Shown: positions 27,697 to 63,229 of the stretch, piece after piece
Layout of the letters: each line of letters starts with the position of its first letter
How positions within the stretch are numbered: position 1 is the first letter of the stretch
Source: a virus
Lineage: Duplodnaviria > Heunggongvirae > Uroviricota > Caudoviricetes
Reading direction: 5' to 3' (one strand)
IMG/VR virus record: IMGVR_UViG_3300033463_000003
DNA length: 64,000 bases
Translations under genes and position numbers: made by a program
The notes under the pieces: generated by a model
What the model was told of the DNA's origin: nothing
What the model saw: only the letters and a program-made list of their open reading frames with translations
Database searches by the model: none

Positions 27697-27709
27697 ACAG
27701 GGTATTTAT

Positions 27710-31409: not shown

Positions 31410-31418
31410 GAGGTAAGT

Positions 31419-34888: not shown

Positions 34889-34902
34889 AAAGGAGTTAGA
34901 AT

Positions 34903-37900
34903 ATGTCAGAACTTTATACAAAAACAAAGTGGATAAATAATAGAACAAAACTCAGTGCTAAAAACATGAACCATATTGAGGATGGCATTGAAAGAGTTGC
35001 TGAAGAAATTGAAAGTATAGAAAGTCAACATCAACTTCATACACATCCTAATAAACAAATTTTAGACCAAATTCAAGTACCTCTTACTACTGGATTAGCA
35101 GAAAAATATGATAGTTATGAAGGGCAAATTGAAGAAAAGTCAGCTGTTTCTGTTTCCGAAACTGGCGAATCTGAGACTAGTGTTCAATATATTACAATTG
35201 ATGGTGTTGAATATAAATTAGCTGGTGATATTGCAGAAAATTATGAAGAATTAGATAATGTTTCTTTAAATGCAATCACAGCTACAGGCGTTTATAAAAT
35301 TATTAATGCAAAAGATGTTCCAGAATATACATCTACTTCTGGTATTTTAAATGCAACTAAATTATCAAATGATCAAACAGCACAAGATTGGTTATCAACA
35401 ACTAACCGTGCAGTTAGAATTTTTGATGAAACAAGTGTTGGTTTAAAATTCTATGTTAATAATGAAGTAGTTCCACAAGGTGAAGTTTTATTACCACTTG
35501 GTGGAACATATGAATTACATGGTGATTTATTAGGCCATATTATTATTGGTGAAGGCGAATTAACTGCCAATAATAGAACAAAAATTATTCTTAATGGTGT
35601 TAATATTCAATCATATAACTATGAATCTTGTATTGAATATACTTCTGAGGCAAGTAAATTAATTGTTGAAATTGCTGATAATTCTAAGAACTACTTAGTT
35701 GCTGGCGTTGAGGGTGAAACTGGTGATAATGACAAAGGTGCGCTTCACTCAGAAAATAATTTAGTTTTAACTGGTGTTGGCTATTTAACAATTATTAATG
35801 CAAAGGGTCATGGTATTAAAGCTTCAGAGCTTGTTATTACTGGAAATCCTTATGTTTATTTAGATACAAATCATGATGCTGTTCATGGTGGTAAATTATT
35901 AAAGATTGCTGGCGGCTACTTTGTAGTTCATGGAGCTAATGATGCATTTAGTGGTTCAGCTGGTGGTAATAATGATGGTAAAGTTTTAATTCTTGGTGGT
36001 GAATATAACATCGTATCATGTAAAGAAGCTGCTTTTGAAGGTAAGTCAGCTAATGGTATTAAAAAAGTATTAAATTCTACTATTACATTTGGTGAAGGCT
36101 GCAATAAATTATTTAACGCAAGTAATGCAAATGAAGGATATGAATTTAAAGTTTTTGAAGGATTAAATACAATTACTAATAATTCTAGTAAAACTTATGA
36201 GGAAGTCAGTTTAGCTGAGGCTGTTGGTTTACCGTATCTTTATGAATATGGTGAAGAACCAGTTCAAATTACTGCTTCTGTAACAACTTTAGATCCAAGC
36301 TCTGATAAAGAATATGTAATTAAAGGTAATTGGACAGGTAAAAAACTTATTACTGCACCAGCTTCTGGAGTTAAAGTTGATTTCAGAGTCAAGGATTTAT
36401 ACTATGAATCAGAAGATGCAGAAGATCTAGAAGCATTTATTACACATACTAATGATAAACGTATTAAATTTAGTATTGATGAATTTAACTTAGCTTATAT
36501 TAAAAAAGCTGCTGGTTCATGTATTACTACTGCCAAGAACTTACAAGTTAAAGGCAAAGGTGATTTATTCCTATCTTGTACAAATGGTGAAGCTATTTCA
36601 GCACCTAATGGCTATACAGTTTTAGGTGGTGATGGTATTAGAAGTATTAAAGGTAGTGCTTCTGGTATTACAACTTCAAGCTTACGTTTAGGTGAAGACC
36701 CAGATGACGTTGATGAAAAATTTGATACTCCAAGTAAACGTGGTGTAAGTGATACTGCTGCATATATTATTGAAAATACTCAAGATATTACTCTAACAAA
36801 TACAGAAGAGCTAATTACATATAAAAATCAAATTATTGCTACACAATATATGACTGGCGCAGTAATTTTAGGTACAATTCAAGCTGCCAATGTTGAAAGT
36901 GCATTAGTTGTTCAATCTGGTGATGTATTACAAAAAGAAGGGGAGCCATACCCAAATACTGCATTAGTTTATGGTATGCCTTCTGGCTTAATTATTGCTG
37001 GTGATGCTCATACATATATTGAACCAAGTGCAGAAGAGCTTGATGGTGAAGTTCCAGATATTGAAGAAGCAGCCGGTAGTGATTGGATTGTTTATCGTGG
37101 CGATGGTTATACAAAAGAAGAAGTAGATACTAAGTTTGTTCCAAAAACAGAATATAATGCTTTACTTGCTAAGCTTGATGCTATTGCTCCAAGAGCAGTT
37201 AATTTTAGTTATAGATTATTAGACCCAACACAAGGTATTAAGAAAACTAATTTATCATTTGCAGATGTTGTTGATGAAAGTGGTGAAGAGCCAGTTATTA
37301 AGTCTGCAATTAGTAATTTAACTATTTATAAATATGCTTGTCCAGAAGAAATTGAAGATGAAGCAGAACAAGCCCATAAATATTTATCAAGTGGTGCTCC
37401 AATTTATGCACGTGATGGTGATAAAGGCTATGTAGCTATTGATAAAACAGGGCAAGTTAACTTTATTCCTGAATTTACAGAAGAGTTTGCAAGTGGCTAT
37501 GTGTTACAACCAGTAGTTACACCTGCAGATGGGTATAATAATTTTAAAACACAATGGAATACTGGAATTCCAGGACTTTACCGTTTTACAAAAGTTAATT
37601 CTGATTTAGATGTTGAATTACATGCTGTTAAAGAGTCAGAAATGCCAGCACATGTATTAACATATAAGCTTAGAGCTCCAGTTGATTATCCAATTGATAA
37701 AGTACCATACCCAACTATTTTCCGTGGTGCAGACCATCTTGAAAAATATGTTAAATATGGCCCAGGTGCAACACTTCAAGGCGCCTATAACACATTAGAT
37801 GAGTCATTAATTAGTGGCTGTGCTTTAGTATTACCACAAGAATATGAAACAGTTACTATTGATAATGTTGATTATCATGAATGGACTATTATTGATAGAG

Positions 37901-38493
37901 CTTATGATGATAATAATGGTTTACCATCAGCTGATACTTCTGGTGATTTATGTGCAAGCTATGTTAGATTTGATGGTGAAATGTTACCAAGTTATGTCGT
38001 ATCAGTATCAGCAACTGGTAGCTATAATAAATTAAATCCACCAAAAGCAGGACAACCATGCTATAAATTAACAAAAGTGATAGGTGATGTTACTATTATT
38101 GCAACTGTTATATATGATCCAGAGCCAGTTAGTTTAACTTTTGTTAATAATACAAATTATGCAATAGAATTCAAAGATACAGATGGTACACATGCGATAA
38201 CTGAATCAATGCAAATTAAAGGTATTGATGATTTTAAGTTTACAATTGCCCATAACTTGGGTGATGAAGCTAAAACGCATGATCCTGCAATTACATCTGT
38301 AGTAATTGGCGGTGATGAACTTGGTATTACTGCAAGTAAAACGGATAAAACTAAACCAATTTATTATTCTGCATCTAAGAAAAAAGATGAGTGTACTATT
38401 TGGAAAGAATTTATTGATATTGCTCATGGTAATATTATTATTACAGTTAATGAAACTGCAATTAAGCAGCCAGAAGAGCCAGTTGGTGAATAG
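34903..38493 (+). CDS. Tail fibre / receptor-binding-like protein (1196 aa)
   Basis: The N-terminal KWINNRTKLSAKNMNHIEDGIERV resembles the conserved N-terminus of tail-fibre proteins in Gram-positive phages. Long, beta-rich, Gly/Asn/Thr-rich body. Confidence 0.55.
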   Translation: MSELYTKTKWINNRTKLSAKNMNHIEDGIERVAEEIESIESQHQLHTHPNKQILDQIQVPLTTGLAEKYDSYEGQIEEKSAVSVSETGESETSVQYITIDGVEYKLAGDIAENYEELDNVSLNAITATGVYKIINAKDVPEYTSTSGILNATKLSNDQTAQDWLSTTNRAVRIFDETSVGLKFYVNNEVVPQGEVLLPLGGTYELHGDLLGHIIIGEGELTANNRTKIILNGVNIQSYNYESCIEYTSEASKLIVEIADNSKNYLVAGVEGETGDNDKGALHSENNLVLTGVGYLTIINAKGHGIKASELVITGNPYVYLDTNHDAVHGGKLLKIAGGYFVVHGANDAFSGSAGGNNDGKVLILGGEYNIVSCKEAAFEGKSANGIKKVLNSTITFGEGCNKLFNASNANEGYEFKVFEGLNTITNNSSKTYEEVSLAEAVGLPYLYEYGEEPVQITASVTTLDPSSDKEYVIKGNWTGKKLITAPASGVKVDFRVKDLYYESEDAEDLEAFITHTNDKRIKFSIDEFNLAYIKKAAGSCITTAKNLQVKGKGDLFLSCTNGEAISAPNGYTVLGGDGIRSIKGSASGITTSSLRLGEDPDDVDEKFDTPSKRGVSDTAAYIIENTQDITLTNTEELITYKNQIIATQYMTGAVILGTIQAANVESALVVQSGDVLQKEGEPYPNTALVYGMPSGLIIAGDAHTYIEPSAEELDGEVPDIEEAAGSDWIVYRGDGYTKEEVDTKFVPKTEYNALLAKLDAIAPRAVNFSYRLLDPTQGIKKTNLSFADVVDESGEEPVIKSAISNLTIYKYACPEEIEDEAEQAHKYLSSGAPIYARDGDKGYVAIDKTGQVNFIPEFTEEFASGYVLQPVVTPADGYNNFKTQWNTGIPGLYRFTKVNSDLDVELHAVKESEMPAHVLTYKLRAPVDYPIDKVPYPTIFRGADHLEKYVKYGPGATLQGAYNTLDESLISGCALVLPQEYETVTIDNVDYHEWTIIDRAYDDNNGLPSADTSGDLCASYVRFDGEMLPSYVVSVSATGSYNKLNPPKAGQPCYKLTKVIGDVTIIATVIYDPEPVSLTFVNNTNYAIEFKDTDGTHAITESMQIKGIDDFKFTIAHNLGDEAKTHDPAITSVVIGGDELGITASKTDKTKPIYYSASKKKDECTIWKEFIDIAHGNIIITVNETAIKQPEEPVGE

Positions 38494-40487: not shown

Positions 40488-40514
40488 TAGGCATCTAATT
40501 AAAGATGCCTTTTT
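40488..40514 (+). terminator. Rho-independent terminator (aggcatct aatta aagatgcct ttttatt)
   Basis: Stem-loop followed by a U-run. The late motif TGCTAAATTAT follows at 40545-40555. Confidence 0.6.
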
Positions 40515-40575
40515 ATTATTTATGGCTTAATAATTGCTAAATTATATGAAATCTTTGGATTAAAGGAGTTAATTT

Positions 40576-40941
40576 ATGGCAGCATTAAATAATATTGTAG
40601 TAATTAACCGTGGTGATACATTCTCATTTGATTTAACTATTAATGATTGTAGCGCACCAGAAGGTAGATATATATTAAAAGATGATGATGTTTTATATTT
40701 TGGTTTAATGGACCCACATCAACTTTTTGAACATGCTTTAGTTAAAAAAAGATATACAAAAGATGATACAGATGATGCTGGTAATTTAGTTATTACATTA
40801 AAGCCAGAAGATACTATAGATTTATGTCCTGGCGTATATTATTATGCTGTTAAACTACATAAGCTTACTGATAATGAAGAAGAATATGTAGATGAAGTTA
40901 TTACTGTAATTAATAAGACTAAATTTATTATTAATGACTAG
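40576..40941 (+). CDS. hypothetical protein (121 aa)
   Basis: ORF with an AAGGAG RBS. Confidence 0.5.
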   Translation: MAALNNIVVINRGDTFSFDLTINDCSAPEGRYILKDDDVLYFGLMDPHQLFEHALVKKRYTKDDTDDAGNLVITLKPEDTIDLCPGVYYYAVKLHKLTDNEEEYVDEVITVINKTKFIIND

Positions 40942-40955
40942 GAGGAGTACTAATA

Positions 40956-43900
40956 ATGATTGGAAAAATAAATAAAAATTCAACATCTATTAGTGGAACA
41001 ATCAATAGTACAGCTCCTAGCACAGGGTCAGTAACTTCTGCAGCTGGTGGTACTAGTGATCATAAAAGATTAGCAAATAGAAGTGCTGCTGATCAACACC
41101 CTATTAGTGCTATTACTAATCTTCAAGATATTTTAGATAGTAAAGCAACTAAGGTTGAACTTGATGAGTTAAAAGCTCAATTAACAGAGAAAAGAGCCAA
41201 GGGCTTATACTATGATTTTAATAGTACTTTTGCTAAAAAGCCATACTGATATTTAGTTTCTGAAGTTGATTCTGAAACAGGCCAAGGAATTCCTGGCGAC
41301 GATGGTAGATATATTGTTTCTGGCCCATATGACCTCGGCCAAGGCGGCGGAGGCGGTGGTTCCGGTGGTGGTATTACTACTGTTACTTTAGTTAACCGTG
41401 ATCCTGAAACAAGTGAGTATTTATGGCCTACTGCTGTTGCTATTGGAGCAGATGTTAATTTAAAAGTTTATTGGTCATCAAAACGTGACGAAGATCCAAC
41501 TGGTAACGGCACGATGTTTGTTTATGTAAATGATATTTTAGTAGAAAAAAAGAATACAAAACAAGGACTTTATGAATGTAATGTTTCTAACTATTTAATA
41601 TCAGGAGCAAATAAAATTGAATTTAAAATTCAAGATGCTTATTCTACAACTAAAAATTTAATTGGTACTATTAATGCTGTTTCTCTTAAACTAACTTCTA
41701 AATTTGAAGATGATACTATTTTAACAGGCCTATTTACATATACCTATATTCCAGTAGGCGATGTTTTAAAATTAGTTCATTTTATTGTTGATGGTGTAGA
41801 AATTGGTGTTGATCAAGTAAGAACCTCTAATGAACAATGTACAAGAGTTTTTCAACCAATGAGTCATGGTTCACATACATTAGAAGTTTATTTTACTGCA
41901 GAAATTGATGGCGATTTTGCAGAATCTAACCATTTAAAGTATGATTTAATTGCTGCAGCATATGGTAATACTACTCCAATTATTGCTTCTACATTCCCAG
42001 CTCAAAGTGAGCAAGAGCAATATGTTGCATATAATATTAAGTATCGTGTATATACCCCAACTGCTGATGGTGGTCATAAAAATACATCTATTGTTAAATT
42101 ATTTATAGATGGTCAACAAGTTGGAAGTGACCTTTCAGTTAATACAAGTTGGCAAAACTGAGAAATTATTCCAACAGTTGTTGGCAATCACATTTATACT
42201 ATTCAAACTGGTTCAGTACAAAGAATTTTTAATGCACATGTTTTTGAAAGTACAATTAATGTTCAGCCAATTGAAACAAGCCAAGTTTTATATTTAACAA
42301 CATCAGGAAGAAGTAATGCAGAAGCATTAGAATCAAGAGTTGTTTGGGAAGATGCTGCACATGATATTCATTGTAATTTAACTGGTTTTAACTGGTCAGC
42401 TAATGGCTGGTTATCAGATAGTACAGGCACAACTGTTTTAAGACTTTCTGGTGATGCTCGTGTTGAAATTCCATATCAACCATTCTATAAAGATGTTCAA
42501 CAAACAGGTAAAACAATTGAAATTGAATTTGCCACATCAGATGTTAAGAAGTATGAATCTCGTATTCTTGAATGTTTAACAGGTGGTGATTCTTTAACTT
42601 ACTCACAAGCACTTGCTGGTGAAGATGATAGAGCACATTATTTTACTGTTACAGATGTTAATAGTGAAAAGTTTGTGCAAGCTGTTAGAGGTGATCATAG
42701 AACATACTTATTCTTACATGATGGAACTAACTGGACATTAGATGGTGAAGTTGTAGATTTAAGCCAAGATAATATTTATGGTATTTCAATTAGAATGGAA
42801 GATCGTGCTGGTGGAACACCTAGTGAATACTTTATTGAAGGTGATAGAATTACTGTTGCTTACTTAGTTGTTGGCCGTGGTATTTATATTACACCTCAAC
42901 TAGCTAAGTTCCAATCTCAATTATCCGCATTATCTACACAATATAAAGAAAATGAAAGAGTTTATTTAACATTTGTTATTGAAAAACGTGCTGAAAATAG
43001 ATTAATCTATATGTATATTAATGGTATTATGTCTGGTGTATCAGTATATCCATTAGGTGATACATTTGAACAAAACCCAGCTGCTAATATTATTTTAGGC
43101 AGCAATGATGCTACATTAGATATTTATACTATTCGTATTTATGATAACTCATTAAATAGAAAACAAGTTGTTAATAACTGGATTGCTAGTATGCGTGATC
43201 CACAAACAAGAGCCGCTTACTATCAAGAAAATGATAACTTTAATCCAGAAACAGGAAAAGTTGTTATTAGTAAAATCCCAAGTAAAACTCCTTACATGGT
43301 TTTAACTGGCCCAGAATTACCAGGATTTAAGAAAGATAAAAAACTTGTTGACGTTGAGTTTGTTTATCCAGGTAGTGATGAAAGATACTTTACTGCTCCA
43401 CAAGCACAAATTGACGTCCAAGGTACTTCTTCACAATATTATTATAGAAAGAACTTTAAAATTAACTTTAAAGAAGGTTTTTATGATATAGATAAAGAAT
43501 ATCATGAAAAATATAAGCATATTCCACCACTATCAAAGAAAGAAAAGAAGTTTACATTTAAGGCTGACGTTGCATCTTCAGAAGGTGCTAATAACGTTCA
43601 ATTAGTTAGATACTTTGAATTAACTAAAAACTGGCTAATGCCTGCTGAAAAAGATCAAGATGCTGATGATACTGCTGATGGATACTTAACAAAAGATAGA
43701 ATTCGTACTGGTATTGATGGTTTCCCAATGATTATGTTCCACAATAATGGTGCTGAAACATATTTCTATGGAAAGATGAACTTTAATAATGATAAAGATA
43801 ATAAGAGCACCTTTGGTTTTAGTGATGGTGATGAATGTTGGGAATTTGTTAACAATACTACACCATTAGTTTTATTTGAAGATGATGATTTATCAAATTG

Positions 43901-46900
43901 GCAAATAAGCTTTGAATCAAGATATCCAGAAGAATATGGTGAAGATGATCATGCTTATGGTACAAAGCCAGGCGAATTAGATAAGCTTCAAGCAGTAATG
44001 TCCTGGGTTGTTTCAACAAAGCGTTTACCAACAGATAGCGATGAAGAAAAAGCTAGAAAATTACAAAAGTTTAGGGATGAATTTGAAGATCATTTTAATT
44101 TACAATCTTCATTATTTTACTACTTATATACAGAATTATTCTTAATGGTTGACTCTCGTGCTAAAAACGCGATGTTAGCTTACTTAAAATCACATACACC
44201 AGGTGATAAAGGAAACAGATGGTTCTGGCTCCCATACGATATGGACACTGCAATAGGTACTAACAACGAAGGTTTATTAGTATTTAACTATGATGCTGAA
44301 GATACTGATATTGTTAATGGTGCTAACGTTTACAACGGCCAAGCTTCTGTTTTCTGGAATAACTTACGTGATGCTTTCCCAACTGAACTAAAACAGCTAT
44401 ATAGAGACTTACGTTCAGGCGCTGCTGGCGGTGATATGAAGTGGTCATATGATAATATTGAAAAATTATTTGAAGATCATCAAAGCTATTGGTCTGCATC
44501 TATCTTTAATGAGGACTCATATACAAAATATCTTGAACCATTAATTAATAATAATGATGCCACTTACTTAGGTATGGCACAAGGTTCAAAAGAAGAGCAA
44601 CGTAAATGGTGGTTGTGGAATAGATTTAGATATTTAGATAGTAAATATAGAACTGGTGATGCACAAGATCAGTACATTATGCTTCGTGCTTATGCTAGGG
44701 ACAATCTTGTTGTTACACCATATATTAACTGTTATGTTACGGGCGTTTTTGACCAAGTTAAAGATGAATCAATGGTTACAGTTGATGCATTAAAAGATAC
44801 TGCATATACAATTGTTCCACCTGAAACATGGGACCCAGCACGTATGGGCTCTGGTGGTTCTGACTCTGTTGTTGCTATTTATTCTGCTGATTTATTAAGA
44901 GATGTTGGTGATTTATCAGGATTTAAGCTTGGTTATGCAGACTTTTCACGTGCAACAAAACTTCAAAGATTACAAATTGGTTCAACTGCCCCAGGATATA
45001 CTAATAATAAACTAGAAACGCTTAACGTTGGTAATAACCACTTACTTACATATCTTGATGCTAGAAACTGTTCAGCACTAGGAACAGGTGATACTAAGAT
45101 TGTTGACCTTTCTAACTGTAATAGTATTGAAGAAGTTTACTTTGATAATACTAATATTCAAGGTGTTATGTTCCCTGTTGGTGGTAACTTAAAGAAAGTT
45201 CATTTACCAGCTTCTATTACTGACTTAACAATTAGAAGTCATCCAAATCTTAATGAATTAAAATTATATGGAACAGATAACTTAACATCAGTTTGGCTTG
45301 AAGATATTCCTTCTTCAAGTATTTCAGCTGTTGAAATTATCAGTGCAATGGATGAGGGTGCAACTGCTCGTTTAATTAATATTAATGAAACTATTGATTC
45401 AGTTGAAACTCTTGAAAATTTCTATGATAAGCTTTGGACTATGAAAGGTAAAGATAACAAAGGTGATACTACAGACAAAGCTCAAATTACAGGTATTATC
45501 AATCTTTCACAATTAACTAATATTTCATATGCTGACTGGGTTAGATTATCTGCTATGTTCCCAGAAGTTGAAATTAGAGGCAATATTATTTGTAATGTTA
45601 ATTTCTGGAATGATGATGTTTTATATGCAACAAGAAATGTTATACTCGGTCGTGCCGCTGTTGCACCAGAAATGCCATCACGTACACCAACAGCTCAATA
45701 TTACTATACATTTGCTGGTTGGGATGGCGATTTTAGTACAGTAACTCAGGATTTAGATATTCATGCTACCTATGATGAACATATTCAAGTATATCATATT
45801 ATTTTTGATGTACGTTCAGAAGTAATTGAGCTTGAGCAAGATACATTTGATTTAGAATATGGTTCAGCAATTCCAGAGCCAGTTATTATTCAAGAGACTA
45901 TCCCAGAAGGTGTCAATTTCTTAGGTTGGCATACAGCTAATAATGACCTAGTTGATTTTAATACAATTACTGTATCTGGAGATATTATTAATTTCCCAGA
46001 GACCAAGAATATTATTATTTCTGCCCGTTGGCAAGATGAAAATGCTCCATTAGTTACATTATCACGTATTTCATATAATAAATTTGCATATAGAGCTACT
46101 GATAACTTAGGTATTGTTGCTTATGCAATTACAGATAGCGAAGTATTAACACCAATTGATGAAAGATGGCATTTAATTACTTCTACAACATTGTATGAAG
46201 GTGAACATACAATTAATGCTACTGGTGATTATTATTTCCATGTTAAAGATGATCAAGGTAATACATCATGGGCAAAAATTACAGCATATGAAGTTAATGT
46301 AATTCAAAATATTAATAATGAATTTGATAGTTCTACTAATATTATTCAAGTTACATATTCAGAACAAGCAGATTTAAGTAATCAATTTACAACGGTTTTT
46401 GCACTTTCTGGCACAAAATTATATATAGATGCAACAAATGATTCACATTATGAAAATTTAAGCTTAAAACATAATGCAGCAGTTGTTAACATTGGTGATT
46501 CTATAACTGTTAACCAAACAATTGTTATTATGGCAAGTGTTACACCAAAAGTATATCGTGTTACATTTGATATTAATTTACCACAAGCTTTAATTGAATC
46601 CTTAACCGAGGAACAAATTGAAGCAATGACTCCATGGCCACAAGATGTTATTTATAAGCATAAAGTTATTGAGCCAGAACCACAATCATTAAATGGCTAT
46701 ATTCTTGATGCATGGAAAACAATTGATGATGAATTATGGAGCTTTGCATCTAATGTAATTTTAGGTGCTCTAACATTGTATGCTGTTTGGGCAGAGTACT
46801 CAGACCCAACAACTATTGTTATTGATACAACTGAAGAAAATCAAGAAGTTCATATTAATTTATGGCAAGAAACTGCAATGGCTGTAAAGGTTGTTTGGGG

Positions 46901-48233
46901 TGATAATACCGGTGAGCAAGCAATCAATGAAGCTGGTGGTGTTACATTTACACACACATATTCTGATGCTAATACATATTCTATTCAAGTTTATAGATAT
47001 GCAGGAAATTATCATTTAGGTTGAAACTTTGATACACCAGCAGTACAACCAATTAATATTGTTTCTGATGTTATTTTTGCTTTTGATGTCGCTTATACAA
47101 ATCCAGGTGCATTTAGAGGTGCAACACATCTTAGTACAATTCGACTAACAAGATTTATGACTAAGATTGCAGACAGTACTTTTGAAGATTGTACTGGAGC
47201 CGTGTCATTTGATGGCGGAACTTATAATATTCCAAATTCAATTCAAAATATCGGTGGTCGTGCTTTTGCTGGTTGTACAGGCTTAACGAGAGTTACATTG
47301 CCAAGTAAACTTCAAGTGTTAGGTGATAACGTATTTAGAGGATGTACAAATCTTACAAATATTACATTTTCTAACGAATGTACATTAGCTAAAATTTCAG
47401 CTTATGCCTTCTATGGATGTTCAAGTTTATCCACAATAAATATTCCAGGCAGTGTTACAACTATTGGTGAAAATGCTTTTGGAAACTGTATAGCTTTATC
47501 AGAGCTATATTTAGGCACAAATGTTACAACTATTAATTCAGAAGCTTTTGCTAACTGTTCTTCATTAGAATATATTACTATTATGGCCCCACATATGATT
47601 ACTATGGATAGAGACTGCTTCTATGGTTGTTCATTATTAGAAACAGCTGGCCCAATTAGTGGTAATTATAATATTAAATTTGGTTGGACACAAGTAATTC
47701 CAGCTAATGCATTTAACGTATCATATGCTGCTGCATCTGCTTTACGTTCAATAACTTTACCATTAACTATTGAAGAAATTGGTGATAATGCATTCTATGA
47801 CTGCCAATACTTAAATAGTATTAATTATGTTGGTAGTACATATGATATTAATATTTTCCCAAATAGCTTACGTATTATTGGTAATAGCTGTTTTAATGGC
47901 TGTGCATCACTTCAAAATATTACTATCCCATCTAGCGTAGAATCAATGGGTGATAGTGTATTTAGAAGTTGCCGTGGCTTAACAAGAGCTTATTTATATT
48001 TAGCAAGTAGTAGCCATAAGATTGATTCACCACTATGTGGTTGGTTCTATAACACAAGATTTATTACACAACCAGATGGTTCACAAGTACAGCAAATTGA
48101 AATTCATGTTCCAAATGATATTACAGAGGGACAAGATGACCTTTATTACGGTGCATATTGGAACTGTCATATTTATGATGGTACTTCCCAACCACCAACA
48201 ATTATAATGCTTGCGTATATAAGCGACCTATAG
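40956..48233 (+). CDS. Giant structural / host-interaction protein (about 2425 aa) with three in-frame TGA codons. Contains a Gly-rich N-terminal region, a CotH-like kinase-fold domain and C-terminal BspA-type leucine-rich repeats.
   Basis: Track ORFs 40956-41249, 41514-42161, 42675-47024 and 47157-48233 all lie in frame 0. The inter-ORF stretches of 264, 513 and 132 nt contain no TAA or TAG. TGA codons are at 41250, 42162 and 47022. SRAKNAMLAYLKSHTPGDKGNRWFWLPYDMDTAIG resembles the CotH catalytic region. The C-terminal region carries repeats of the form G(C/N)xxLxxIxIPxSVxxIGxxAF(xxC), as in BspA-type leucine-rich-repeat proteins. Confidence 0.7.
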
Positions 48234-48497: not shown

Positions 48498-49106
48498 ATG
48501 CCAAGAATGCCAATAGTTACTCCCAAAGATGATAGAATTCAAGAAAAGCCAAAGGCTGTTCGCCCTGTTAATCCAGTACAGCCACCTAAAAAAGAATTCC
48601 ATAGGGATAATACATCAGTTTATATTCAACCAGTTGACTTTGATTTAAAGTTAAAAGTTTTAGCTGAAGATACTGCTAGAACTTATTTGCCTTTAGATTT
48701 TGATAACAACTCAGAAATTGAGCAAAAAACAGCTGAAGAGCTAGCAGATACAGCTTATATTTTTGTTGATAATAATGGAAAGCCAACTAAGGTTTTGGCA
48801 ACCTCTGTTTTAAGAACATTTATTAAATGAAACGATTTAGCAGATAGCACAAAAACAAGAATTCAGCAAGCTATTGATATAGCTATTGAATCAAATAAGC
48901 TTAAAGCAGGTGATAATATTACTATTGAAAATAATATTATTAGTGCTAATATTGGTGTAGCCTCACTTAATGGCAAAATTGGTAGTATAACATTATCAGC
49001 AGAAGATTTAAATGCTTATACAAAAGATAAAGTTTATACAAAAGATGAAACACAAGATATTATTAATAATTTAATTATAGAAGTAGATGGAGGACGAATT
49101 GAATAA
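48498..49106 (+). CDS. hypothetical tail-associated protein (202 aa) with one in-frame TGA at 48828
   Basis: Track ORF 48498-48830 continues in frame to the TAA at 49104. Confidence 0.5.
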
Positions 49107-49107
49107 T

Positions 49108-49779
49108 ATGAGTAATACTATTAGAATTGATGTTGTTCAACTAAAGCGTGGCAATAAAGCAGATTTAGAGCGTGTCCTCCGTGGCATACTTAAACCAGCA
49201 GACGGTGAACCAATTTTTGAAATAGATACAGGCAAACTTAAATTTGGTGATGGTATTCATAACTATGTAGACTTAGAATATTTTAGAACTGGTGATATTC
49301 AAGTTGCTGATGCTTTAAATGGCCAAATTTTAACATATGATGCCGCCCAAGCAAAATGGGTTGCAAGTAAGTTTGCAGATAATAAAAGTATTGAGTATAC
49401 TGAAAATGGCTTACAAATTGCAGGTTTTAATACTCCTGCTGCCCAACAAGGTTATGGACCGATTGTTAATGAAGATACTATTAACTGGCAAAAAGTTGTA
49501 ACAGATGAAACACTAAATGCAAAAGTTCAACAAGCAGATAGTGCAGCATATCAAGCTGGTCAAGCTGCAGCAAGTGCATTTTCTTCTGCTGAAAATGCAA
49601 ATCGTTCTGCAGGTCAAGCAGAACAATTTAGAGACGCAACTGCACAACTTATTAATGATAAATTCTGGTTTGGCACAAGAGCAGAATATGAAACAGAAGT
49701 TATTGGTCAAAATCAATTACATGAGGGAACAATATATTTTATTCGTGATTATGATTGGATTGATTTCCCAAATAACTAA
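49108..49779 (+). CDS. Tail-fibre protein with a conserved N-terminal fibre/hyaluronidase-type domain (223 aa)
   Basis: KRGNKADLERVLRGILKPADGEPIFEIDTGKLKFGDGIHNYVDLEYF matches the N-terminal signature shared by many Gram-positive phage tail fibres (R..T...W...NP.L..GE.G.E.DT.K.K.GDG...W..L.Y). Confidence 0.55.
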   Translation: MSNTIRIDVVQLKRGNKADLERVLRGILKPADGEPIFEIDTGKLKFGDGIHNYVDLEYFRTGDIQVADALNGQILTYDAAQAKWVASKFADNKSIEYTENGLQIAGFNTPAAQQGYGPIVNEDTINWQKVVTDETLNAKVQQADSAAYQAGQAAASAFSSAENANRSAGQAEQFRDATAQLINDKFWFGTRAEYETEVIGQNQLHEGTIYFIRDYDWIDFPNN

Positions 49780-49797
49780 TAAAAAGTAAGGTATTTT

Positions 49798-50310
49798 ATG
49801 AGCACAAGAGATCGAATTGGTAATAATAAAGCTAGAGTAGGCACTCTTGTTGATGGAAGTTTGGAAAGCAAATTACATTTAATTTTAGGCTCAACTACAA
49901 TATTAAATGGTTCACAGCTAGTATATGACTTGCATCAACAAGTTTTTAGAAATGGAGTTTTACCATTAGACCTTGAAACTGGTGGCCCAAATGATGAACT
50001 TTTGCCAGAGTACAAGTGTAATTGATATCCAGGCAGTATTACATATGGTGTTGTATTAGATAATGATGCACCAGTATATAGTTCAGAGGATGAAACAAAT
50101 AGACAATATTTAGGTACAGTTCAAAAATTTAGGGAAGGTAATAATATTGAAGAATCTATTGTTAGAATTTATACTGTTTTAGACGGAATAAATACAAACC
50201 ATACTTGGCAACAAAAAATGAATATTTATTATAAAATTAGGATGCATGATGGCACAATTGGTTATATTAATTCTTTATTAATTAATAAAATTGTGTATAA
50301 AGATTGCTAA
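49798..50310 (+). CDS. hypothetical protein (170 aa) with one in-frame TGA at 50023
   Basis: Track ORF 49798-50025 continues in frame to the TAA at 50308. The stop overlaps late motif TGCTAAATTAT at 50304-50314. Confidence 0.5.
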
Positions 50311-50345
50311 ATTATTTGATAACATAGAGATCAAGGAGAAGTAAA

Positions 50346-53300
50346 ATGTCAGCTAATAACTTTAAATTAACACTTGACACAATTGCTCCAGTCGGTAGCT
50401 TTGTTTTAACTGACTGAGGTGATAACGAAACAATATATATAAATACTTCAAAGCAGCTTTCACTTAATAAAGGTGATGCTTCTTTCATGAAAATTTGGTA
50501 TGATGGATCAGCATCAACTTCTACAATTCCATCAACATATGGAAATAATACCACATTAAACTGGATTCCAGCTGCTGCAACATATACAATGTCATTCCAT
50601 GCAGATGGTGAATATTATTGCCATGTTGCTTTTATGGATGATGTTGGTAATATTTCATCAGTCGCACATTCAAAGGAAATTATGTATGAAACACAACGTC
50701 CTACATTTGTTACTGTAGATAATAAATTGCAGTTTTATGCATATGATTTAGATGATACTGATACAACAAGAAAATATTTATATACAAATAGTGCCACATT
50801 TGGTTTTCACTTTAAAGTTGCTGATACAGGTACTACACAATCATTAGTTGACCATGTTGTGCTTAGAGGTAATTTTACAGGCAGTCCAAAGACTTTATCA
50901 GGTAGTGATATTAATTCTTCTGGTGAACCTGCAAGTACATTAAATCTTACTTTTACTTCTGGTGCGACACATGGTGAGCAAATTATTTATGGTGATGTCT
51001 ATGATAAAGCTGGCAACCATCTTGCTTCAGAAGTTTCTACATCAATTATTTATGACCCAGATCCTGTTGGAGCTAACCTTGCTTTACAAAAGAATGGTAG
51101 TGCATTAGCTCAATATATTAATGCTGCTAATAATAGTTTTGATGTTGTTATTACACTTCAAGATGGTGTTGACCCAGATTCAGCAGTTGACACAGACGTT
51201 GTTGGATACAAATATTGGGGTGGTTTAACAGGACACACTTCTGAACCATCTACTTGGACAACTTGGCCAACGACTTCTGGTACTGCCAATACAAGTGTAA
51301 CACTTTCAAGTCAATCATTTACAACAGGTGATGAAACAAAGAGTGTTTATGCAAAAGTTATTGATAGAGCTGGCAACATTACAAGCTTAGGCCCAATCAC
51401 AAGAGTTTATGATAATACAGCCCCAGCTGATACCCCATCTACTCCAACTGCTACAAGTAATGATATTTGGGTTGGCCAAACTAATCCTTCATCACCAGCT
51501 AACCGTAGTAATACTGATACAATTGCTAATGGTAATGGTACAATAAATAGTACAACTGTTTACTTCTATGCCACAGATGCTACAGCAGGTGTTGCTTCAG
51601 TTGCATTTATGTGTAACTCAACTAACTTTGCTTCAGGCACACACTGCTATGATGCAACAGCTCCATCTTCTGGTAATGTTTGGTCTGGTAGCTGGACATT
51701 TAAAGGCCCAGGTGCAACAGGTGCTACAACAGGTGCAGTTGTTGGTACAAATACTGTTACAATGCGTATTACTGATAGGGCTGGAAACTATCGTGATTAT
51801 TCAGTTACTATTGTCGTTGAAAACTCGTTTACAATTGATTCATTAACAATTACAGGTCATGAATTATATTCTAATATCTTTAATTACAGTAGAGCAAATA
51901 GTGCTTTAGGTGCTACATTTGTTTGTACTGATCTTCCAACATCAAGTTGGGATACATATTATGCTTGGATTGATACCACAGCAAATAATACTACAGCTGC
52001 AGGTAATGCAAGAACTTGGGCATCTAGTGGTGGTACAAGCCAAGTTGTAGCAAATAATTTAATTAATAAGTCACTTGCAGATAATGCAACAAATTATTTA
52101 CATATTAAAGCTGTTAGTAAAACAGGCTTAGTCGCATATAAACATGCAACATTTACAATTGATTCTATTGCTCCAACATTATCAGCAAGTATTTCAAGCA
52201 CAAGTACATCTTCAAGAACTAATACAATTGTTGTTGCTGGTTCTGGTAGTACTTATGATAATGCTGGTGGTGTAGGCCTTGATTGTATTAAGATTGCTGC
52301 AAAATCTGGCACATCATTACAAACAGGTGCTATTGACTGGACAAATTATACTGCAGGTAATTATACAGTAACATTATCTTCATCAACACAAGATGGAACT
52401 TATGGTGTTATTGTATATCTTCGTGATAAAGCAAATAATAGCACATCACAAGAGCTTACATGGGAATATGATAAGACTGCCCCAGCAGTTGCTGTTGATG
52501 GCTTGGTATTAAAAGAATCAGATGGAACTACTGGTAAAGTTTCACCAACTGCTATTAATACAGTTAGAGCTCAAATTACATTTGCATCACCAGATGCTAC
52601 AGATGATGAAAATACTCTTTGGTATAAGATTTATGGTGATATTGCTACAACAGCTAGTGGTGCTGCAATTACTGAATCTAATGCTGAATGGGTACCATTC
52701 CATACAGATAATACTAACTTAGCAAATGGTGAACAAGCAAGAATTTCAGCTACAACTACAATTACAGAAATATTCTATTGTACAGCAGCTGTTACCGGTA
52801 CTGATGGTGATACTAAGACTATTAGAGTTAAGTTAAAAGATAATGCTGGAAATATTTCATCAGAAGCAACAGCATCCTTCATTTATAACCCAAGAAGAGC
52901 TGAGTTGTTTATTTCAGAGGTATCACACCCAAGAATTAGCTGCTCACATATTAAACGTAAAACAACAAGTGGCGGCAACGTAGTTGATGAAAGTAATATT
53001 ATTATTGACTATGATGATAGTAGTAGTACAACAGCAGATAGATACACAATTGAGGACTATGCAGATGTTGTTGCATTTAAAGTAAAATCAGGTGAAACTG
53101 GTAATGGCCAAACAATTGTTGAATGGAAAGTTGCTGCTTATACAACTTATCCAAGCTCAGATGTTTCAGGTGAAACAGTTACTGCAATGACAAAACGTAA
53201 TGGTTCATACTCAACAACTGGCTATAGTAATACCATTGCAGGTGGTACAAAAGTATGGCACGTTGTTATTGATGGCCAAGATTATAGAACTGCTTTAGGT

Positions 53301-53408
53301 GGCAGTGCATCTACAAATAAAGATGGCCTTCATTATATTGTTGTATTTGGTAAGAACCAAGCTGGCTTATGGTCATTAGCTGGCACAGTCACTGAAATTG
53401 ACTGGTAA
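50346..53408 (+). CDS. Large Thr/Ser/Gly-rich structural protein, probable tail fibre or appendage (about 1020 aa), with one in-frame TGA at 50415
   Basis: ATG at 50346 after an AAGGAG RBS. In frame with track ORF 50487-53408 with no other stop between. Repetitive beta-rich sequence. Confidence 0.6.
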
Positions 53409-53492
53409 TTATTAAAAGTATAATTGACAAGTTATGGTCGATGGCTAATTTGAACGGCCATCGACCATTTATTTAAAAGTAAAGGAGCTTAT

Positions 53493-55184
53493 ATGGCAAC
53501 ACGTCCAACAATAACATATTCAAATGTTAAACATAAAGTAATTGGTGGCGTTTCAGGCGGAAATTTTACATATAATGATGAGGATATTTCTGTCCTTTTT
53601 AATGGTGGTGTTGGCGGAAGTACATCGTATAAAGTTTCTTGTAATTCACCATTTAACCAAATAACAGGACAATTTACATCTAGTATTGCTTTAACAAGAT
53701 TTGAAATAAGAGTTAATCCAATAGAGGAAGAAGAATATGGACCAAATATTGGCAATTTAGTTTGTATGGAGCTTGGTATTTCAGCCAATACAGCTAAATC
53801 ATTTTCATTTACTATTTCAACATCTACTTTTAATGGAAGCCCCACTAACACATATAGAGTTTGCTTATTATCGCAAGCGCAATCCGATTATACATGGGAT
53901 TATACAGCATTATTTATGGTTATTAATAATTCATTTACTGACCTTTATAAAGAAGTAGAGTACCTTAGTTTTAGTCGTGATAGTAATCCATGTTGTATAG
54001 ATACAGGTGTTACTATGCAAAAAACTTATTCTATAGAAACAGCTATGGAACTTACAAATACTTCAGGTGATAATCAATTCTTATTTAGTGATAGATCCAG
54101 CAGTGGTGGTTATTTCCATGTTTATGTTGCGCCATCAAGATTTGCTACATATCAGTCGCCAAATGTTGGTACTATTACTATGGCATTAAACCAAAAATAT
54201 ATATTTAGAAAAGTTGGAACAAGCTGTTATGTAGATAGCACTTATTATGGTGAATCTGGGACAAGCACTCAGACAACACGAACTTTATTAATTGGTTGTG
54301 TTGATTCTACGACAAATACTCGTGGTTTTTATGGAAAGTGCTATTATTTTAAAATTTATGATGCTAATAAATCACTTCTTAGATGTTTTATACCTTGTGT
54401 TAGAAAAAGTGATTCAGTACCTGGAATGTTTGATACTGTTAATGAAGTATTTTATCAGAATACAGCTAGTGGCTCATTTACAGCTGGCCCAGAAATAGAA
54501 TTACCGGCAGCATATCAAGAAATAGAGTATCTTGAATCAACAGGATCACAATATATTAATACTGGTTTTATTCTTGATTTTAATACTAGAGTTGTTTGTG
54601 ATATGGCTTTAACTTCCCAAACAACTGGTATAATGTTGTGGGGCGCAATCGGTTCAACACCAAATATATTAGAATATTCTTGCTATGTAAACAGTAGTAA
54701 AATAAGGCCATATTTTCAGGTAAATAGCTCAACATATTATCAATTTTATTCTGATACCTTACTAACAAATCAATTAATACATATTGATTTTGATGTTAAA
54801 CCAGATAAACAACAAATAGTAACATCACAGGGTAGTAATGCTTATACATATGATAAAACATTTAATTTAACAACTTCTAATACATCTGACCATAATATGT
54901 TTATTTTTGCTTCTTCTACAAATAGTGGTGGTGTAGGTTGGCCAGGTGCATCAAAGTTATATAATATGAAAATATATAAAAATGATGAACTTGTTAGATA
55001 TTTTATTCCATGCTATAGGAAATCAGATAGTAAGCCAGGATTATATGACCTAGTAAATGATGTTTTTTATGTAAATCAAGCAAGTGGTACTGAATTTACA
55101 ATGGGGCCAGCTTGTGAAAATATGCGTTCAGTTAATGCTTATGAAAAGTTTGTTCCAACAGGTGCAGACGGATTTGCTGTTTAG
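53493..55184 (+). CDS. Tail-fibre-like protein (563 aa) carrying two copies of a ~40-aa module also found in 59480-63196
   Basis: CFIPCVRKSDSVPGMFDTVNEVFYQNTASGSFTAGPE and RYFIPCYRKSDSKPGLYDLVNDVFYVNQASGTEFTMGP. Confidence 0.55.
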   Translation: MATRPTITYSNVKHKVIGGVSGGNFTYNDEDISVLFNGGVGGSTSYKVSCNSPFNQITGQFTSSIALTRFEIRVNPIEEEEYGPNIGNLVCMELGISANTAKSFSFTISTSTFNGSPTNTYRVCLLSQAQSDYTWDYTALFMVINNSFTDLYKEVEYLSFSRDSNPCCIDTGVTMQKTYSIETAMELTNTSGDNQFLFSDRSSSGGYFHVYVAPSRFATYQSPNVGTITMALNQKYIFRKVGTSCYVDSTYYGESGTSTQTTRTLLIGCVDSTTNTRGFYGKCYYFKIYDANKSLLRCFIPCVRKSDSVPGMFDTVNEVFYQNTASGSFTAGPEIELPAAYQEIEYLESTGSQYINTGFILDFNTRVVCDMALTSQTTGIMLWGAIGSTPNILEYSCYVNSSKIRPYFQVNSSTYYQFYSDTLLTNQLIHIDFDVKPDKQQIVTSQGSNAYTYDKTFNLTTSNTSDHNMFIFASSTNSGGVGWPGASKLYNMKIYKNDELVRYFIPCYRKSDSKPGLYDLVNDVFYVNQASGTEFTMGPACENMRSVNAYEKFVPTGADGFAV

Positions 55185-55210
55185 TTAAATAAATATATAA
55201 AAAATAATAT

Positions 55211-55240
55211 AAAACTCCTGCTATTGAGCTGGAGTTTTTA
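55211..55240 (+). terminator. Rho-independent terminator (aaactcc...ggagttttt). The late motif TGCTAAATTAT follows at 55249-55259.
   Basis: Stem-loop followed by a U-run. Confidence 0.55.
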
Positions 55241-55289
55241 TTTATATTTGCTAAATTATATGAGTTTTCGGACAAGGAGAGCACAAATT

Positions 55290-55790
55290 ATGGCAGAATA
55301 TCTAAGTAGTTTTGCAGGAAAAGAAGTTGATAGAGCAATTAGCAAGCTAAAAAACTGGGCGGCTGCTGGTTTTGATGCAAGCTTAGCAAATATGACCACC
55401 ACAGATACCTATGATACTGTTACTATTAATAGTGCTACTTATGCTGTACTTTGGAAAGTTGCTCCTACAAGCTCAAATACAGTATATGGTATTGGATTAA
55501 GCACAACCACTGGTGCTATTTATCAAATTAAGTCTACAAATGGCACAAAAACAGCCGTCGCATTAGATACTGATACAAAGACTACTGCTGCATCTGCTAA
55601 TAGTGATAATAAATTATTCTTAATTGGTAGAACACAACAAAGCTCAACTGGTGATACAACATATTCAAATACTCAAGTATATGAAACAGCTGGCACATTA
55701 AATGCAACTAAGTTTACAGTTGATGCAGCACATACTGGCGGTACAATCCAATATAATACTACAACAGGATGTATAGAAATTATATGCTAG
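55290..55790 (+). CDS. hypothetical structural protein (166 aa)
   Basis: ATG at 55290 after a GGAGAG RBS. In frame with track ORF 55224-55790. Confidence 0.5.
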   Translation: MAEYLSSFAGKEVDRAISKLKNWAAAGFDASLANMTTTDTYDTVTINSATYAVLWKVAPTSSNTVYGIGLSTTTGAIYQIKSTNGTKTAVALDTDTKTTAASANSDNKLFLIGRTQQSSTGDTTYSNTQVYETAGTLNATKFTVDAAHTGGTIQYNTTTGCIEIIC

Positions 55791-57841
55791 CAGATTTTAT
55801 CGTAGAAAAAGATAAGCTTATTCTAAGGAATTTGAATAAAAATGGTGCAGCTTTAGATGTTTGGTCATCAGGCAGCTCAAGCTATAATTTTTATAATGTG
55901 CCATATGAAACTCCTGTAGTATTAGACCATTATTACTACCAAAGATTTACATATAAATTTACTACAACTAATCAATCACCAACTTGATCACAATTTTATA
56001 TTCAAGGCGGTATGAGGGGTGGTCCAAATATTTCTAATCCGGTAGCTGGAACAGAGTATACAGCAAGTGGTATTCAAACAGTATCTATTACAAGTCCAAG
56101 CTATACTATTACTTCTGGTACTTTATATAATGGCCCAGGTGGTGCAATTAGTGGTGTATCAGCTCAAGCAAAAAATGTTCTAATTTATGATGTTACAATT
56201 TTAAGAACATATTTAAGAGCCCTAGGTATTGCTACAACTGATTCAGCAATTAAAACATGGTGTGATAATAATTTAGTTTATGTTCCACCATATACTGATT
56301 ATGATATTTCAAACCTTCTTACAAATGATGCTACAAATAAAGTATATATAAAAGAAGGGCATATTATTGCAAATAACTTTATTGAATGTGATGGCATGAA
56401 ATACTATTCATATAATAAAAACTTAGATAATTATTTTGATGAAAGTTTATCTGGTGTATCAGTATATAATAATTCTGGTAATGGAACTGTTACTCATACA
56501 CGAATTTCTGCTGAAACACAAGATTCACCATTTCTTGGAAAACACCCATATATTCTACAAATTACTACAAATGGGACAGCCAGTCCTGGTGCAGGCGGGC
56601 TAGTTTTATACCACCAGTCAGCGGCCAATAAAATATTTGTAGAAAAAATTGTGGCAAAAATTCCAGTTGGCTATACATTAAATTGTTACTATAATCCACA
56701 AGGTGATGGCGCTTCAATTGGATTTATTTCCTCCCAAGCTGGAACAGGTGATTGAGCTGAGTATACTGTGCTATATAAGTGTGGTTCAAGTGGTTCATTT
56801 TCAAGCGGCGGGCATCTTGCATTAGTAGCAAATAGTGGCTATAGTAATACCTCAGTTACTTGGTACATTGCATATGCTAATAACTGTGATATTACTGATA
56901 AAGAATACCTAAAATATTATACTGCTATGCCAGACACTTATAGATTTAAAGATGGAAATATATATGATACAAAATTTGATACAGTAAATTTATTTCCAAA
57001 TGGTGATGCAAGTGACCAGACAATGCCTTTACCATCAGGCTGGACTTATGATACCGAAGATTATGCTGGAAATGCAAAGTGTTCAATTGTTCAACCAGTT
57101 AATGCAGCTGCAGGCACATTTGATGTATTTATGCCAATAGATCCAACAGCATTATATAAAGTTTCTTATTGAGTAAAAACAACCGGGGATATGTCAAGTT
57201 TTTTAACAGCTATATATTTATATGCTTCAAATAAAACCACTCAAATTGTTCACGCTAATTCTCAGTATGTTTATGGCACAAAGACAAAATTAGCCCAAGA
57301 TTTAGTAAGTGGGGCAACAGAAGTATATCTTAATTCAGTCTCAAATTGGACTATTAAGAGCTGGTCATCTTTAGGGATCAGAAATAATGAATATAATTCA
57401 ACTTATAATGATATATTAACTTATGATAATGGTTCAGGTGGTATTGTTGGTGCTGTAGATACCACAAATAAAAAAATCACTCTTACAAAAGCTTATTCTG
57501 GTAATACAATAGCTACTGGTAAAACTGTTGTAGAAAGCTTTGATGGTAGTAATCATCCATACCCAATTAATAAAAATATGTTGCCAACTGATAACACATG
57601 GAAGTATGTTGAAGGTACTTTCGGAAAAGCTAATACTTTATCAGATGGTCAAGCAAATTCTGGTGGCTCAACTTGGCAAGGTATTCCAGCAGTGGTTAGA
57701 TATATAAAGCTAACACCAAATTTATATAAAAATACAAGTACAGCAGCAATTAAATTTTCAGATATAAGAATAGAACAAATAAGTAATTCAGCAGGTCATA
57801 GATACGAAAAAAAGATAGCATTTAAAAAACATTCAGTATAA
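55769..57841 (+). CDS. Tail-fibre-like protein (about 690 aa) with three in-frame TGA codons. Exact start uncertain (55769 or 55784).
   Basis: Track ORFs 55769-55987, 56012-56755, 56768-57172 and 57191-57841 all lie in frame 2 with only TGA between them. Confidence 0.55.
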
Positions 57842-57856
57842 TAAGGAGAAAAAAGT

Positions 57857-59436: not shown

Positions 59437-59479
59437 AAATTTTAATGTATAATAAAAAGTAAAGGATAGATTATAAATA

Positions 59480-63196: not shown

Positions 63197-63229
63197 AAAT
63201 AATTGTATAATATAATTAAGGTAAATAGT

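Follow-up and report, generated by a model that had tools for sequence, protein, structure and literature searches.

The DNA analysed here, hereafter the window, is a stretch of 64,000 nucleotides (nt) from a virus of the class Caudoviricetes (IMG/VR record IMGVR_UViG_3300033463_000003), with a GC content of approximately 32% and nearly all of its long open reading frames (ORFs) on the + strand. Within it lies a region (40956..48233, + strand) which a standard-code ORF list divides into four pieces of 97, 215, 1,449 and 358 amino acids (aa), separated by gaps of 264, 513 and 132 nt. An original prediction, made from the letters of the DNA, had proposed that the four ORFs are one protein joining a CotH-like kinase-fold domain to BspA-type leucine-rich repeats (LRRs). 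Frame 1 of the region holds three internal stops, all of them TGA (codons 98, 402 and 2023), and ends in a TAG at 48231. With TGA decoded as Trp, as in genetic code 4, the product of this giant gene is a single protein of 2,425 aa, 271 kDa and pI 4.7, which we regard as probably a phage tail fibre or adhesin.

Continuity of the reading frame

The probability that 2,425 codons free of TAA and TAG arose by chance in such AT-rich DNA is negligible, as estimated from base composition alone. Reading TGA as sense also merges adjoining fragments into long ORFs throughout the window, in which TGA is not used as a stop and occurs in frame at conserved Trp positions. Collinear ORFs were found at four related loci: L004 (2,373 aa) and L002 (approximately 2,439 aa), both 55-56% identical to the giant protein, L005 (2,348 aa, 58% identity) and L085, whose product P0121 (2,382 aa, 65.5% identity) is already present as a single protein in a public collection. 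Residues 98 and 402 are matched by Trp in L004, L002, L005 and P0121 alike, and among distant homologues whose local alignments span aa 402, 67 of 80 carry Trp, the remainder having F, Y or S. The third TGA falls at a variable position that is uninterrupted in the relatives (K in L004, V in L005, Q in P0121, and N or a gap in L002 depending on the alignment), and the flanking sequence YxLG-x-xFDxPAV is kept on both sides of it in the collinear ORFs. Scanning IMG/VR with peptides spanning the aa-2023 junction retrieved no relatives; the junction was resolved with loci retrieved via homologous proteins and by exhaustive search.

The same comparison was made in reverse. In L005, 23 of its own 28 TGAs lie opposite Trp of the giant protein, and in L002 and L004 this is true of all seven TGA sites at which every relative aligns to Trp; the in-frame TGAs of the relatives are placed elsewhere than those of the giant gene. 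The gene for the anaerobic ribonucleotide reductase NrdD (window 1651-3603) contains four in-frame TGAs, two of which fall at invariant Trp residues in an alignment with T. maritima NrdD (4COI) and the other two at Phe and Tyr, indicating that code 4 is in use outside the late genes too. Moreover, the DNA from each TGA to the start codon that follows is matched by unbroken, homologous protein in the relatives, and in standard-code genomes the orthologues are single ORFs, mostly of 1,600-2,480 aa. Five independent lines of sequence comparison thus concur that the TGAs of the giant gene are sense codons and that its frame is continuous.

The alternative, in which the four ORFs are separate standard-code genes that seem fused only because genuine TGA stops have been read as sense, can point to an ATG or GTG start for each ORF and to the lack of a suppressor tRNA, as Aragorn detected no tRNA, suppressor or otherwise, in the 64 kb. 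A suppressor tRNA is visible in only 35% of TGA-recoded phage genomes (Borges et al., 10.1101/2021.08.26.457843), and TGA-to-Trp recoding is established in gut phages (the same study; Zeta crAss-like phages, PMC12386605). The four-gene reading is contradicted by the match of the three inter-ORF stretches to continuous protein, by the reciprocal alignment of TGA with Trp in L005 and NrdD and by the single-ORF orthologues of standard-code genomes. In addition, the first LRR_5 repeat (GAFRGATHLSTIRL...) starts at approximately aa 2051, upstream of ATG 47157 (Met2068), so that a separate 358-aa gene would begin in the middle of a repeat. On these comparisons the four-gene reading is effectively refuted and retains almost no probability, and the proposal of one protein stands, its collinear relatives measuring 2,348-2,439 aa.

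The giant gene contains 39 TGG and three TGA codons, versus eight TGG and 28 TGA in the L005 orthologue; as the ratio is inverted, the degree of recoding differs sharply among close relatives. L005 (CAVBGZ010000007.1), the closest genomic relative, is a 47.7-kb contig filed under a Waltera intestinalis metagenome-assembled genome (MAG) in GTDB/GenBank. It has no standard-code ORF of at least 400 aa in the 21 kb examined and is clean in code 4, as the contig of a recoded phage. Its assignment to that bin is weak evidence, which could point to a Lachnospiraceae host or be an artefact. No blastn match to the giant gene was found in 50,697 GenBank phage records.

Domains of the giant protein

Structure models were obtained for two stretches between the recoded sites, aa 99-401 and aa 640-1560. 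The AlphaFold2 (AF2) model of aa 640-1560, based on an alignment of 81 sequences, reached a predicted local distance difference test score (pLDDT) of 89.3 and a predicted template-modelling (TM) score of 0.88. Its top two Foldseek matches in the PDB were B. cereus CotH, 5JD9 and 5JDA (E 6e-10 and 1e-9, probability 1.0; target-normalised TM 0.63-0.65 at approximately 10% sequence identity), with the next PDB match at E 7.5e-3. A 600-aa fragment gave a marginal match to CotH PF08757 (E 1e-5, 25.7 bits versus a cut-off of 23.8 bits) covering profile positions 156-262 of 322, one third of the profile, and a precomputed PF08757 match is listed for 34 of the 120 best homologues. In the catalytic-loop and metal-site motifs, D1066, R1068, K1070, N1071, Y1094, D1095 and D1097 are invariant in 81 homologues of 35-50% identity, and likewise the N-lobe motifs QGTSS..Y..KN and K-x-D...E (KADxxSSEG). 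The programs hhalign and hmmsearch produced the same alignment to B. subtilis CotH, both with weak statistics (D1066=D228, N1071=N233, D1095=D251 and D1097=D253); in CotH, D228Q is catalytically dead and D251A is inactive (PMC7821199). A search with the family hidden Markov model (HMM) revealed no second CotH domain in the window.

Bacillus CotH (PF08757; 5JD9/5JDA) and the domain of the giant protein share the same fold, with aligned catalytic Asp/Asn and metal-binding Asp positions, but the former is a 42-kDa stand-alone enzyme whereas the latter lies inside a 271-kDa fibre and carries insertions of approximately 100 aa. The modelled fold, together with the conserved motifs, indicates that aa 798-1252 truly adopt the CotH fold, in divergent form, and have kept its active-site signature. 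The signature SRAKN...PYDMD, from which the original prediction had named the domain, therefore sits in a real CotH fold according to both the fragment match and the AF2/Foldseek result, and its catalytic-type Asp, Asn and Asp are invariant in the 81 homologues.

The remaining regions are listed in Table 1. The N-terminal 127 residues match the Pfam family PTR ('phage tail repeat like') below threshold (E 0.006) as well as phrog_33936, and we infer a role in tail anchoring; inspection of the N-terminus found no signal-peptide-like or membrane-anchor-like sequence. The Gly-rich region expected at the N-terminus is real as a run of Gly at aa 128-139, but approximately 127 residues precede it. 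The Ig-like region predicted to follow the Gly stretch was recovered as three tandem beta-sandwiches, the AF2 model of aa 99-401 (pLDDT 88.6) matching RbmA, SGBP-B, complement MG domains and RTX adhesin repeats in Foldseek. The LamG-like assignment draws on the all-beta start of the core model, on Laminin_G_3 in relatives, on a BFVD match to 'Concanavalin A-like lectin/glucanase' and on the domain composition given by Wu et al. 2018. The predicted C-terminal array of approximately 350 aa of BspA-type LRRs was confirmed by PF13306, which matched in three stretches (E 2.7e-56 and 3.9e-60; 189-202 bits versus a gathering cut-off of 27.7 bits). Among close relatives the core is 70-88% identical and the C-terminal third or tip 30-46%, the LRR_5 array being least conserved, a gradient expected of a receptor-binding tip on a conserved shaft.

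Table 1. Features of the giant gene and its upstream region, in window coordinates
Feature	Position	Strand	Remarks
Terminator-like hairpin	40489..40510	+	8-bp stem, T-run; closes preceding transcription unit
Repeated motif ATTGCTAAATTATxTGA...AAGGAG	40528..40568	+	3 copies in window; candidate late promoter or leader
121-aa companion gene, phrog_1084	40576..40941	+	directly 5' of giant gene
Giant gene	40956..48233	+	2,425 aa; TGA=Trp; stop TAG
N-terminal region, ~127 aa, putative tail attachment	40956..41336	+	motif DQHPISAITNLQDIL; short coiled-coil-like stretch
In-frame TGA no. 1	41247..41249	+	aa 98 = Trp; W in all four or five collinear relatives
Gly-rich hinge GQGGGGGGSGGG	41337..41372	+	aa 128-139; G-run in family consensus; predicted disordered
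Three tandem Ig/FnIII-like beta-sandwiches	41373..42290	+	aa ~140-445; AF2 and Foldseek
In-frame TGA no. 2	42159..42161	+	aa 402 = Trp; W in 67/80 homologues and all close relatives
LamG/ConA-like jelly-roll, approximate bounds	42303..43175	+	aa ~450-740
CotH-like atypical kinase-fold domain	43347..44711	+	aa 798-1252, the span of the family HMM match
DSRAKN (D1066...N1071)	44151..44168	+	equivalent of CotH catalytic loop D228...N233; invariant D1066, R1068, K1070, N1071
YDMD (D1095, D1097)	44235..44246	+	equivalent of CotH metal-binding WD251YD; invariant Y1094, D1095, D1097
Beta-sandwich and internal LRR solenoid, end of conserved core	44712..45635	+	aa ~1253-1560; model secondary structure; Foldseek SDS22, TLR8
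Variable stalk, Listeria-Bacteroides (Flg_new) repeats	45753..46805	+	aa ~1600-1950; PF09479 E 4e-9 to 4e-11
Small PKD-like beta domain, weak assignment	46818..47021	+	aa ~1955-2022; Pfam PKD E 0.03-0.08, below threshold
In-frame TGA no. 3	47022..47024	+	aa 2023, sense codon at variable position; relatives read through
BspA-type LRR_5 array, putative distal receptor-binding tip	47079..48155	+	aa ~2042-2400; PF13306

Family members and gene neighbourhood

A search with aa 700-1560 returned 1,254 homologues. An exhaustive search with the CotH domain identified 1,949 cluster representatives at E<=1e-3 and 619 at E<=1e-30 (clusters defined at 50% identity), mostly of 1,600-2,900 aa, and in reference genomes relatives were located at 166 loci in Oscillospiraceae, Lachnospiraceae, Acutalibacteraceae, Bacteroides/Tannerellaceae, Chryseobacterium, Coriobacteriia, Synergistaceae and one Mollicutes MAG. 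The family occurs in prophages of Clostridia, an example being that of Zongyangia hominis NSJ-54 (L012), as well as of Bacteroidales, Chryseobacterium, Coriobacteriia and other groups. As judged from sequence and domain order, the family core runs from an N-terminal anchor and a Gly hinge through three Ig-like domains, a LamG-like domain and the CotH-like domain to an internal LRR, and it is followed by exchanged C-terminal modules (LRR_5, DUF6273 or Flg_new, and in some members the variable repeat of a diversity-generating retroelement, DGR). The giant protein carries the collinear core (Ig-like, LamG, CotH, internal LRR) within one ORF longer than 1,600 aa. It matches phrog_14959, a 2,494-position profile, at E 7e-103; this and phrog_24896 are the PHROGs v4 entries of the family, with function unknown there. 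The C-terminal extension of the 56 complete genomic members is LRR_5 in 29, DUF6273 in 20 and Flg_new in five, and LRR_5 is also carried by 28 of the 120 best database matches. The original prediction had called the combination of CotH and LRRs unusual; this premise fails, since the LRR_5 tip is the commonest in the CotH-core family.

Giant CotH-containing phage proteins are on record (Wu 2018; Roux 2020; Benler 2021; Macadangdang 2024). They appear as DGR category f1, of approximately 2,000 aa with CotH and Laminin_G_3 (Wu et al. 2018), as the DGR-target cluster PC_00012, with a 2,284-aa example (Roux et al. 2020, 10.1101/2020.04.01.020958), and, in Bacteroides, as domain group 3, whose members exceed 2,000 aa and combine CotH with carbohydrate-binding and leucine-rich-repeat motifs (Macadangdang et al. 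2024). Like these, the giant protein exceeds 2,000 aa, is encoded by a phage or prophage and places CotH beside carbohydrate-binding and LRR motifs. The published accounts centre on a hypervariable C-type-lectin tip, whereas the tip of the giant protein is a non-diversified LRR, the commoner form in the genomes sampled. No DGR template/variable repeat pair of at least 40 nt was found in the window and no reverse transcriptase among the window ORFs scanned, and the protein ends in LRR_5 rather than in a DGR-diversified C-type-lectin C-terminus. Its C-terminal array is shared with BspA-type LRR_5 proteins, although BspA proteins are secreted bacterial surface proteins. The Mtd protein of Bordetella phage BPP-1 is a functional analogue, since it too provides a phage fibre with a variable binding module at its distal end, but it is a small trimer of the C-type-lectin kind and is not homologous to the giant protein.

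Another relative is the tail fibre of Hankyphage (Bacteroides phage p00, BK010646.1), encoded by a 6,738-nt gene as a giant single ORF of 2,245 aa in the tail module. The two proteins share the core (85% of the 921-aa core by tblastn, at 26% identity); the Hankyphage fibre is matched by the family CotH HMM at E 1.4e-64 and retains the motifs VDQRAKN, YDGD and QGTSS. In p00 the tape measure, baseplate hub and minor tail protein genes are followed by the CotH-core homologue, with a DGR variable repeat at its 3' end. This homologue is known as the Hankyphage tail fibre; it undergoes active diversification, and mass spectrometry identified five of its peptides in particles precipitated with polyethylene glycol (PMC12135933). 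Whereas the Hankyphage protein ends in a DGR variable repeat, with the reverse transcriptase and template repeat downstream, the giant protein ends in LRR_5; Hankyphage uses the standard code and the window phage code 4. Distant in sequence and from other phage lineages, Bacillus phage G gp353 and the crAss-like proteins cr52_1 'internalin-like', cr124_1 'spore coat protein-like' and cr272_1 have predicted structures that match the core model (E 7e-31 to 2e-10), gp353 with 25% tblastn identity over 88% of the core.

The family gene also follows tail genes in prophage L001, in the order tape measure, distal tail protein, Prophage_tail, DUF859, a 116-aa gene and the CotH-core gene, with endolysin and holin farther on. 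A position after tape-measure and baseplate or tail-tip genes is thus seen in L001 and Hankyphage; the window neighbours are tail- or fibre-like, with no tape measure or hub recognised. L001 is a standard-code prophage with a 1,396-aa family member, and an RVT_1 reverse transcriptase (16294-17478) lies approximately 2 kb downstream of a separate DUF6273 gene, which suggests that the DGR target has split off from the CotH-core protein in this lineage.

In the window itself, no capsid, portal, terminase, tape-measure or baseplate/hub gene was recognised in the 64 kb, and most neighbouring ORFs have no PHROG or Pfam match. The genes around the giant gene encode a beta-helix protein with Cthe_2159, a Big_2 protein with matches to 'major tail protein / Ig-domain structural protein' PHROGs, a protein with Mtd_N and another five large proteins of fibre-like appearance. 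The Cthe_2159 protein (34900-38493, 1,197 aa; carbohydrate-binding beta-helix domain, E 3e-23) lies two genes upstream of the giant gene, likewise in L002, L004, L005 and L085, and weakly matches a hypothetical protein of the crAss-like phages cr272_1 and cr273_1. A crAss-like lineage for the window phage was considered and set aside, a single weak neighbour match being insufficient to assign it. Approximately 850 nt downstream of the giant gene, 49087-49779 encodes a 230-aa protein with Mtd_N, the N-terminal domain of the BPP-1 tropism determinant. In L085 the gene after the Mtd_N protein (17983-22168) encodes a second CotH-domain protein of 1,179 aa; in the window, a 170-aa ORF (49783-50310) matches the last ~140 aa of that protein at 35% identity and seems to be either a remnant or a C-terminal module standing on its own.

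Immediately upstream, a ribosome-binding site (RBS), GGAGGAG, stands 8 nt before ATG 40956 and overlaps or abuts the stop of the 121-aa gene. This companion is 69-73% identical in L002, L004 and L005, and its homologues immediately precede the CotH-core gene in L001, L023 and L059; the companion is a possible chaperone or connector. A universal partnership was rejected, and it is a lineage-restricted partner at best, because jackhmmer finds homologues in only six of the family loci. The repeated motif before it recurs at 23309-23349 and 50298-50338, each of the three copies standing just before a large late or structural gene (starts including 23345 and 50328).

Several further observations concern the rest of the window. 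Between 4073 and 16303, at least 11 copies of an intergenic unit of approximately 70 nt stand ahead of a string of small genes, each combining a short GC-rich hairpin or T-run with a near-consensus sigma-70 promoter (GTTTACAA-N17-TGTTATAAT) and an RBS; the arrangement looks like an early-gene array read by host RNA polymerase. Five large consecutive ORFs (~1,020, 563, 690, 526 and 1,238 aa), scarcely annotated, occupy 50328-63196, and the proteins starting at 53424 and 59477 share the repeated motif R.FIPC.RKSD..PG(L/M)(Y/F)D.VN..FY.N...FT.GPE; with the giant gene, the five look like a battery of alternative fibres. A Gly-rich protein of 371 aa (27692-28825; GAGGGGA/GGGGGG runs, six in-frame TGAs) weakly matches a 'tail fiber assembly' PHROG. 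Accessory genes encode an SPFH/Band-7 protein (20878-22167), an EcoRI-type adenine methyltransferase (31410-32477) and a radical-SAM protein (63203-64000), the last interrupted by the window end.

A probable modular tail fibre with a kinase fold

We conclude that the giant protein is probably a modular tail fibre or adhesin of a low-GC (32%), code-4 phage, in which the core is conserved and the binding tip at the C-terminus can be exchanged. A virion or host-interaction role, as the original prediction had suggested, is the best-supported reading given the gene order in homologues and the Hankyphage fibre, and the position of the gene, like the Hankyphage homologue, speaks for a component of the tail fibre rather than for an injected effector. 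In the proposed mechanism, the protein would be synthesised in the cytoplasm with its 121-aa partner, an association visible in the operon layout, and presumably late in infection. The N-terminal ~127 residues would dock to the tail tip or baseplate, as the gene order of the homologues suggests. The Ig-like, LamG-like and LRR domains would form an extended stalk, and the fast-evolving Flg_new/PKD/LRR_5 solenoid would bind a host receptor and set the host range; the conservation gradient is observed among close relatives, and receptor binding is proposed by analogy with the DGR-diversified tips of homologues. With the lowest confidence of these steps, the CotH-like domain would most likely still bind nucleotide and metal and transfer phosphate, because the catalytic Asp/Asn and the Asp-x-Asp metal site are kept in every homologue examined. 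Its targets would be phage or host-envelope components, in assembly or adsorption, which we deem likelier than a role as an injected signalling kinase.

A number of results count against this picture. PF08757 was not listed at E<=0.1 in a Pfam scan of the full-length protein, so that the CotH match held for the fragment and failed for the whole; neither the fragment sequence nor an 81-sequence profile retrieved CotH from the PDB, giving chance matches only, and the hhalign probability for the CotH alignment is 5%. The B. subtilis CotH sequence used in that alignment was checked only by its length of 362 aa and by the presence of D228 and D251 in the expected motifs. Taken at the sequence level, the case for CotH is a marginal one. 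That the LRR_5 tip binds a receptor is proposed by analogy, and the tail-module assignment draws on homologues and on weakly annotated neighbours. Finally, a kinase on an extracellular fibre would lack ATP.

The last point also speaks for another reading of the CotH-like domain, as a catalytically silent scaffold or a ligand-binding (lectin- or adhesin-like) module in a protein that is purely an adhesin; a role of this kind has been suggested for the CotH invasins of fungi. Binding-type domains (Ig, LamG, LRR) stand on both sides of CotH, and the CotH proteins of Mucorales are surface invasins of these fungi. Invariance of the catalytic and N-lobe motifs in 81 homologues, and their retention in Hankyphage at approximately 26% identity, is however typical of a maintained active site, and we consider a silent domain possible but rather unlikely. 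Because the catalytic motifs are strictly invariant across divergent family members, the domain may instead be an active, virion-borne phosphotransferase acting on a host-envelope component, on a co-assembled phage protein or on the fibre itself, and needed for adsorption or fibre maturation; in this specific form the proposal is a speculative one, to which we give a low probability. If it were true, the resident enzyme of the tail fibre would be a kinase, versus the usual glycan depolymerase or esterase.

Delivery of the protein, or of a processed CotH fragment, into the host as a eukaryotic-like Ser/Thr kinase that reprograms host signalling was proposed for PC_00012 by Roux et al. (10.1101/2020.04.01.020958); the catalytic motifs are intact, and phage kinases in host takeover exist (Benler 2021). 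Such a role is hard to reconcile with a multi-domain protein of 271 kDa with adhesin-type repeats and no known processing site or ejection signal, with a diversified or variable tip typical of external receptor-binding proteins, and with a gene that lies among tail-fibre genes in L001 and Hankyphage rather than among ejection or early genes; we regard it as very improbable. Still less credence is due to the suggestion that the gene is a moron, encoding an adhesin that an infected or lysogenic cell would secrete or display on its surface. Repeats of the BspA-type LRR_5 and Flg_new kinds are indeed typical of bacterial surface proteins, but the N-terminus has no signal-peptide-like or membrane-anchor-like sequence, the operon contains structural-looking neighbours, the position after tape-measure and hub genes is conserved in L001 and Hankyphage, and the homologue was detected in Hankyphage particle preparations.

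Read as a tail fibre, the giant protein adds a non-DGR, LRR-tipped, code-4 example to a known and widespread family, and raises no new question. Standard gene calling splits a 271-kDa fibre such as this in TGA-recoded phages, and public protein sets hold many such pieces. The CotH-core family is large (~1,950 clusters) and includes the fibre of the globally common Hankyphage, and the role of a kinase fold with an intact active site in the middle of a fibre is a family-wide question, already raised in the literature.

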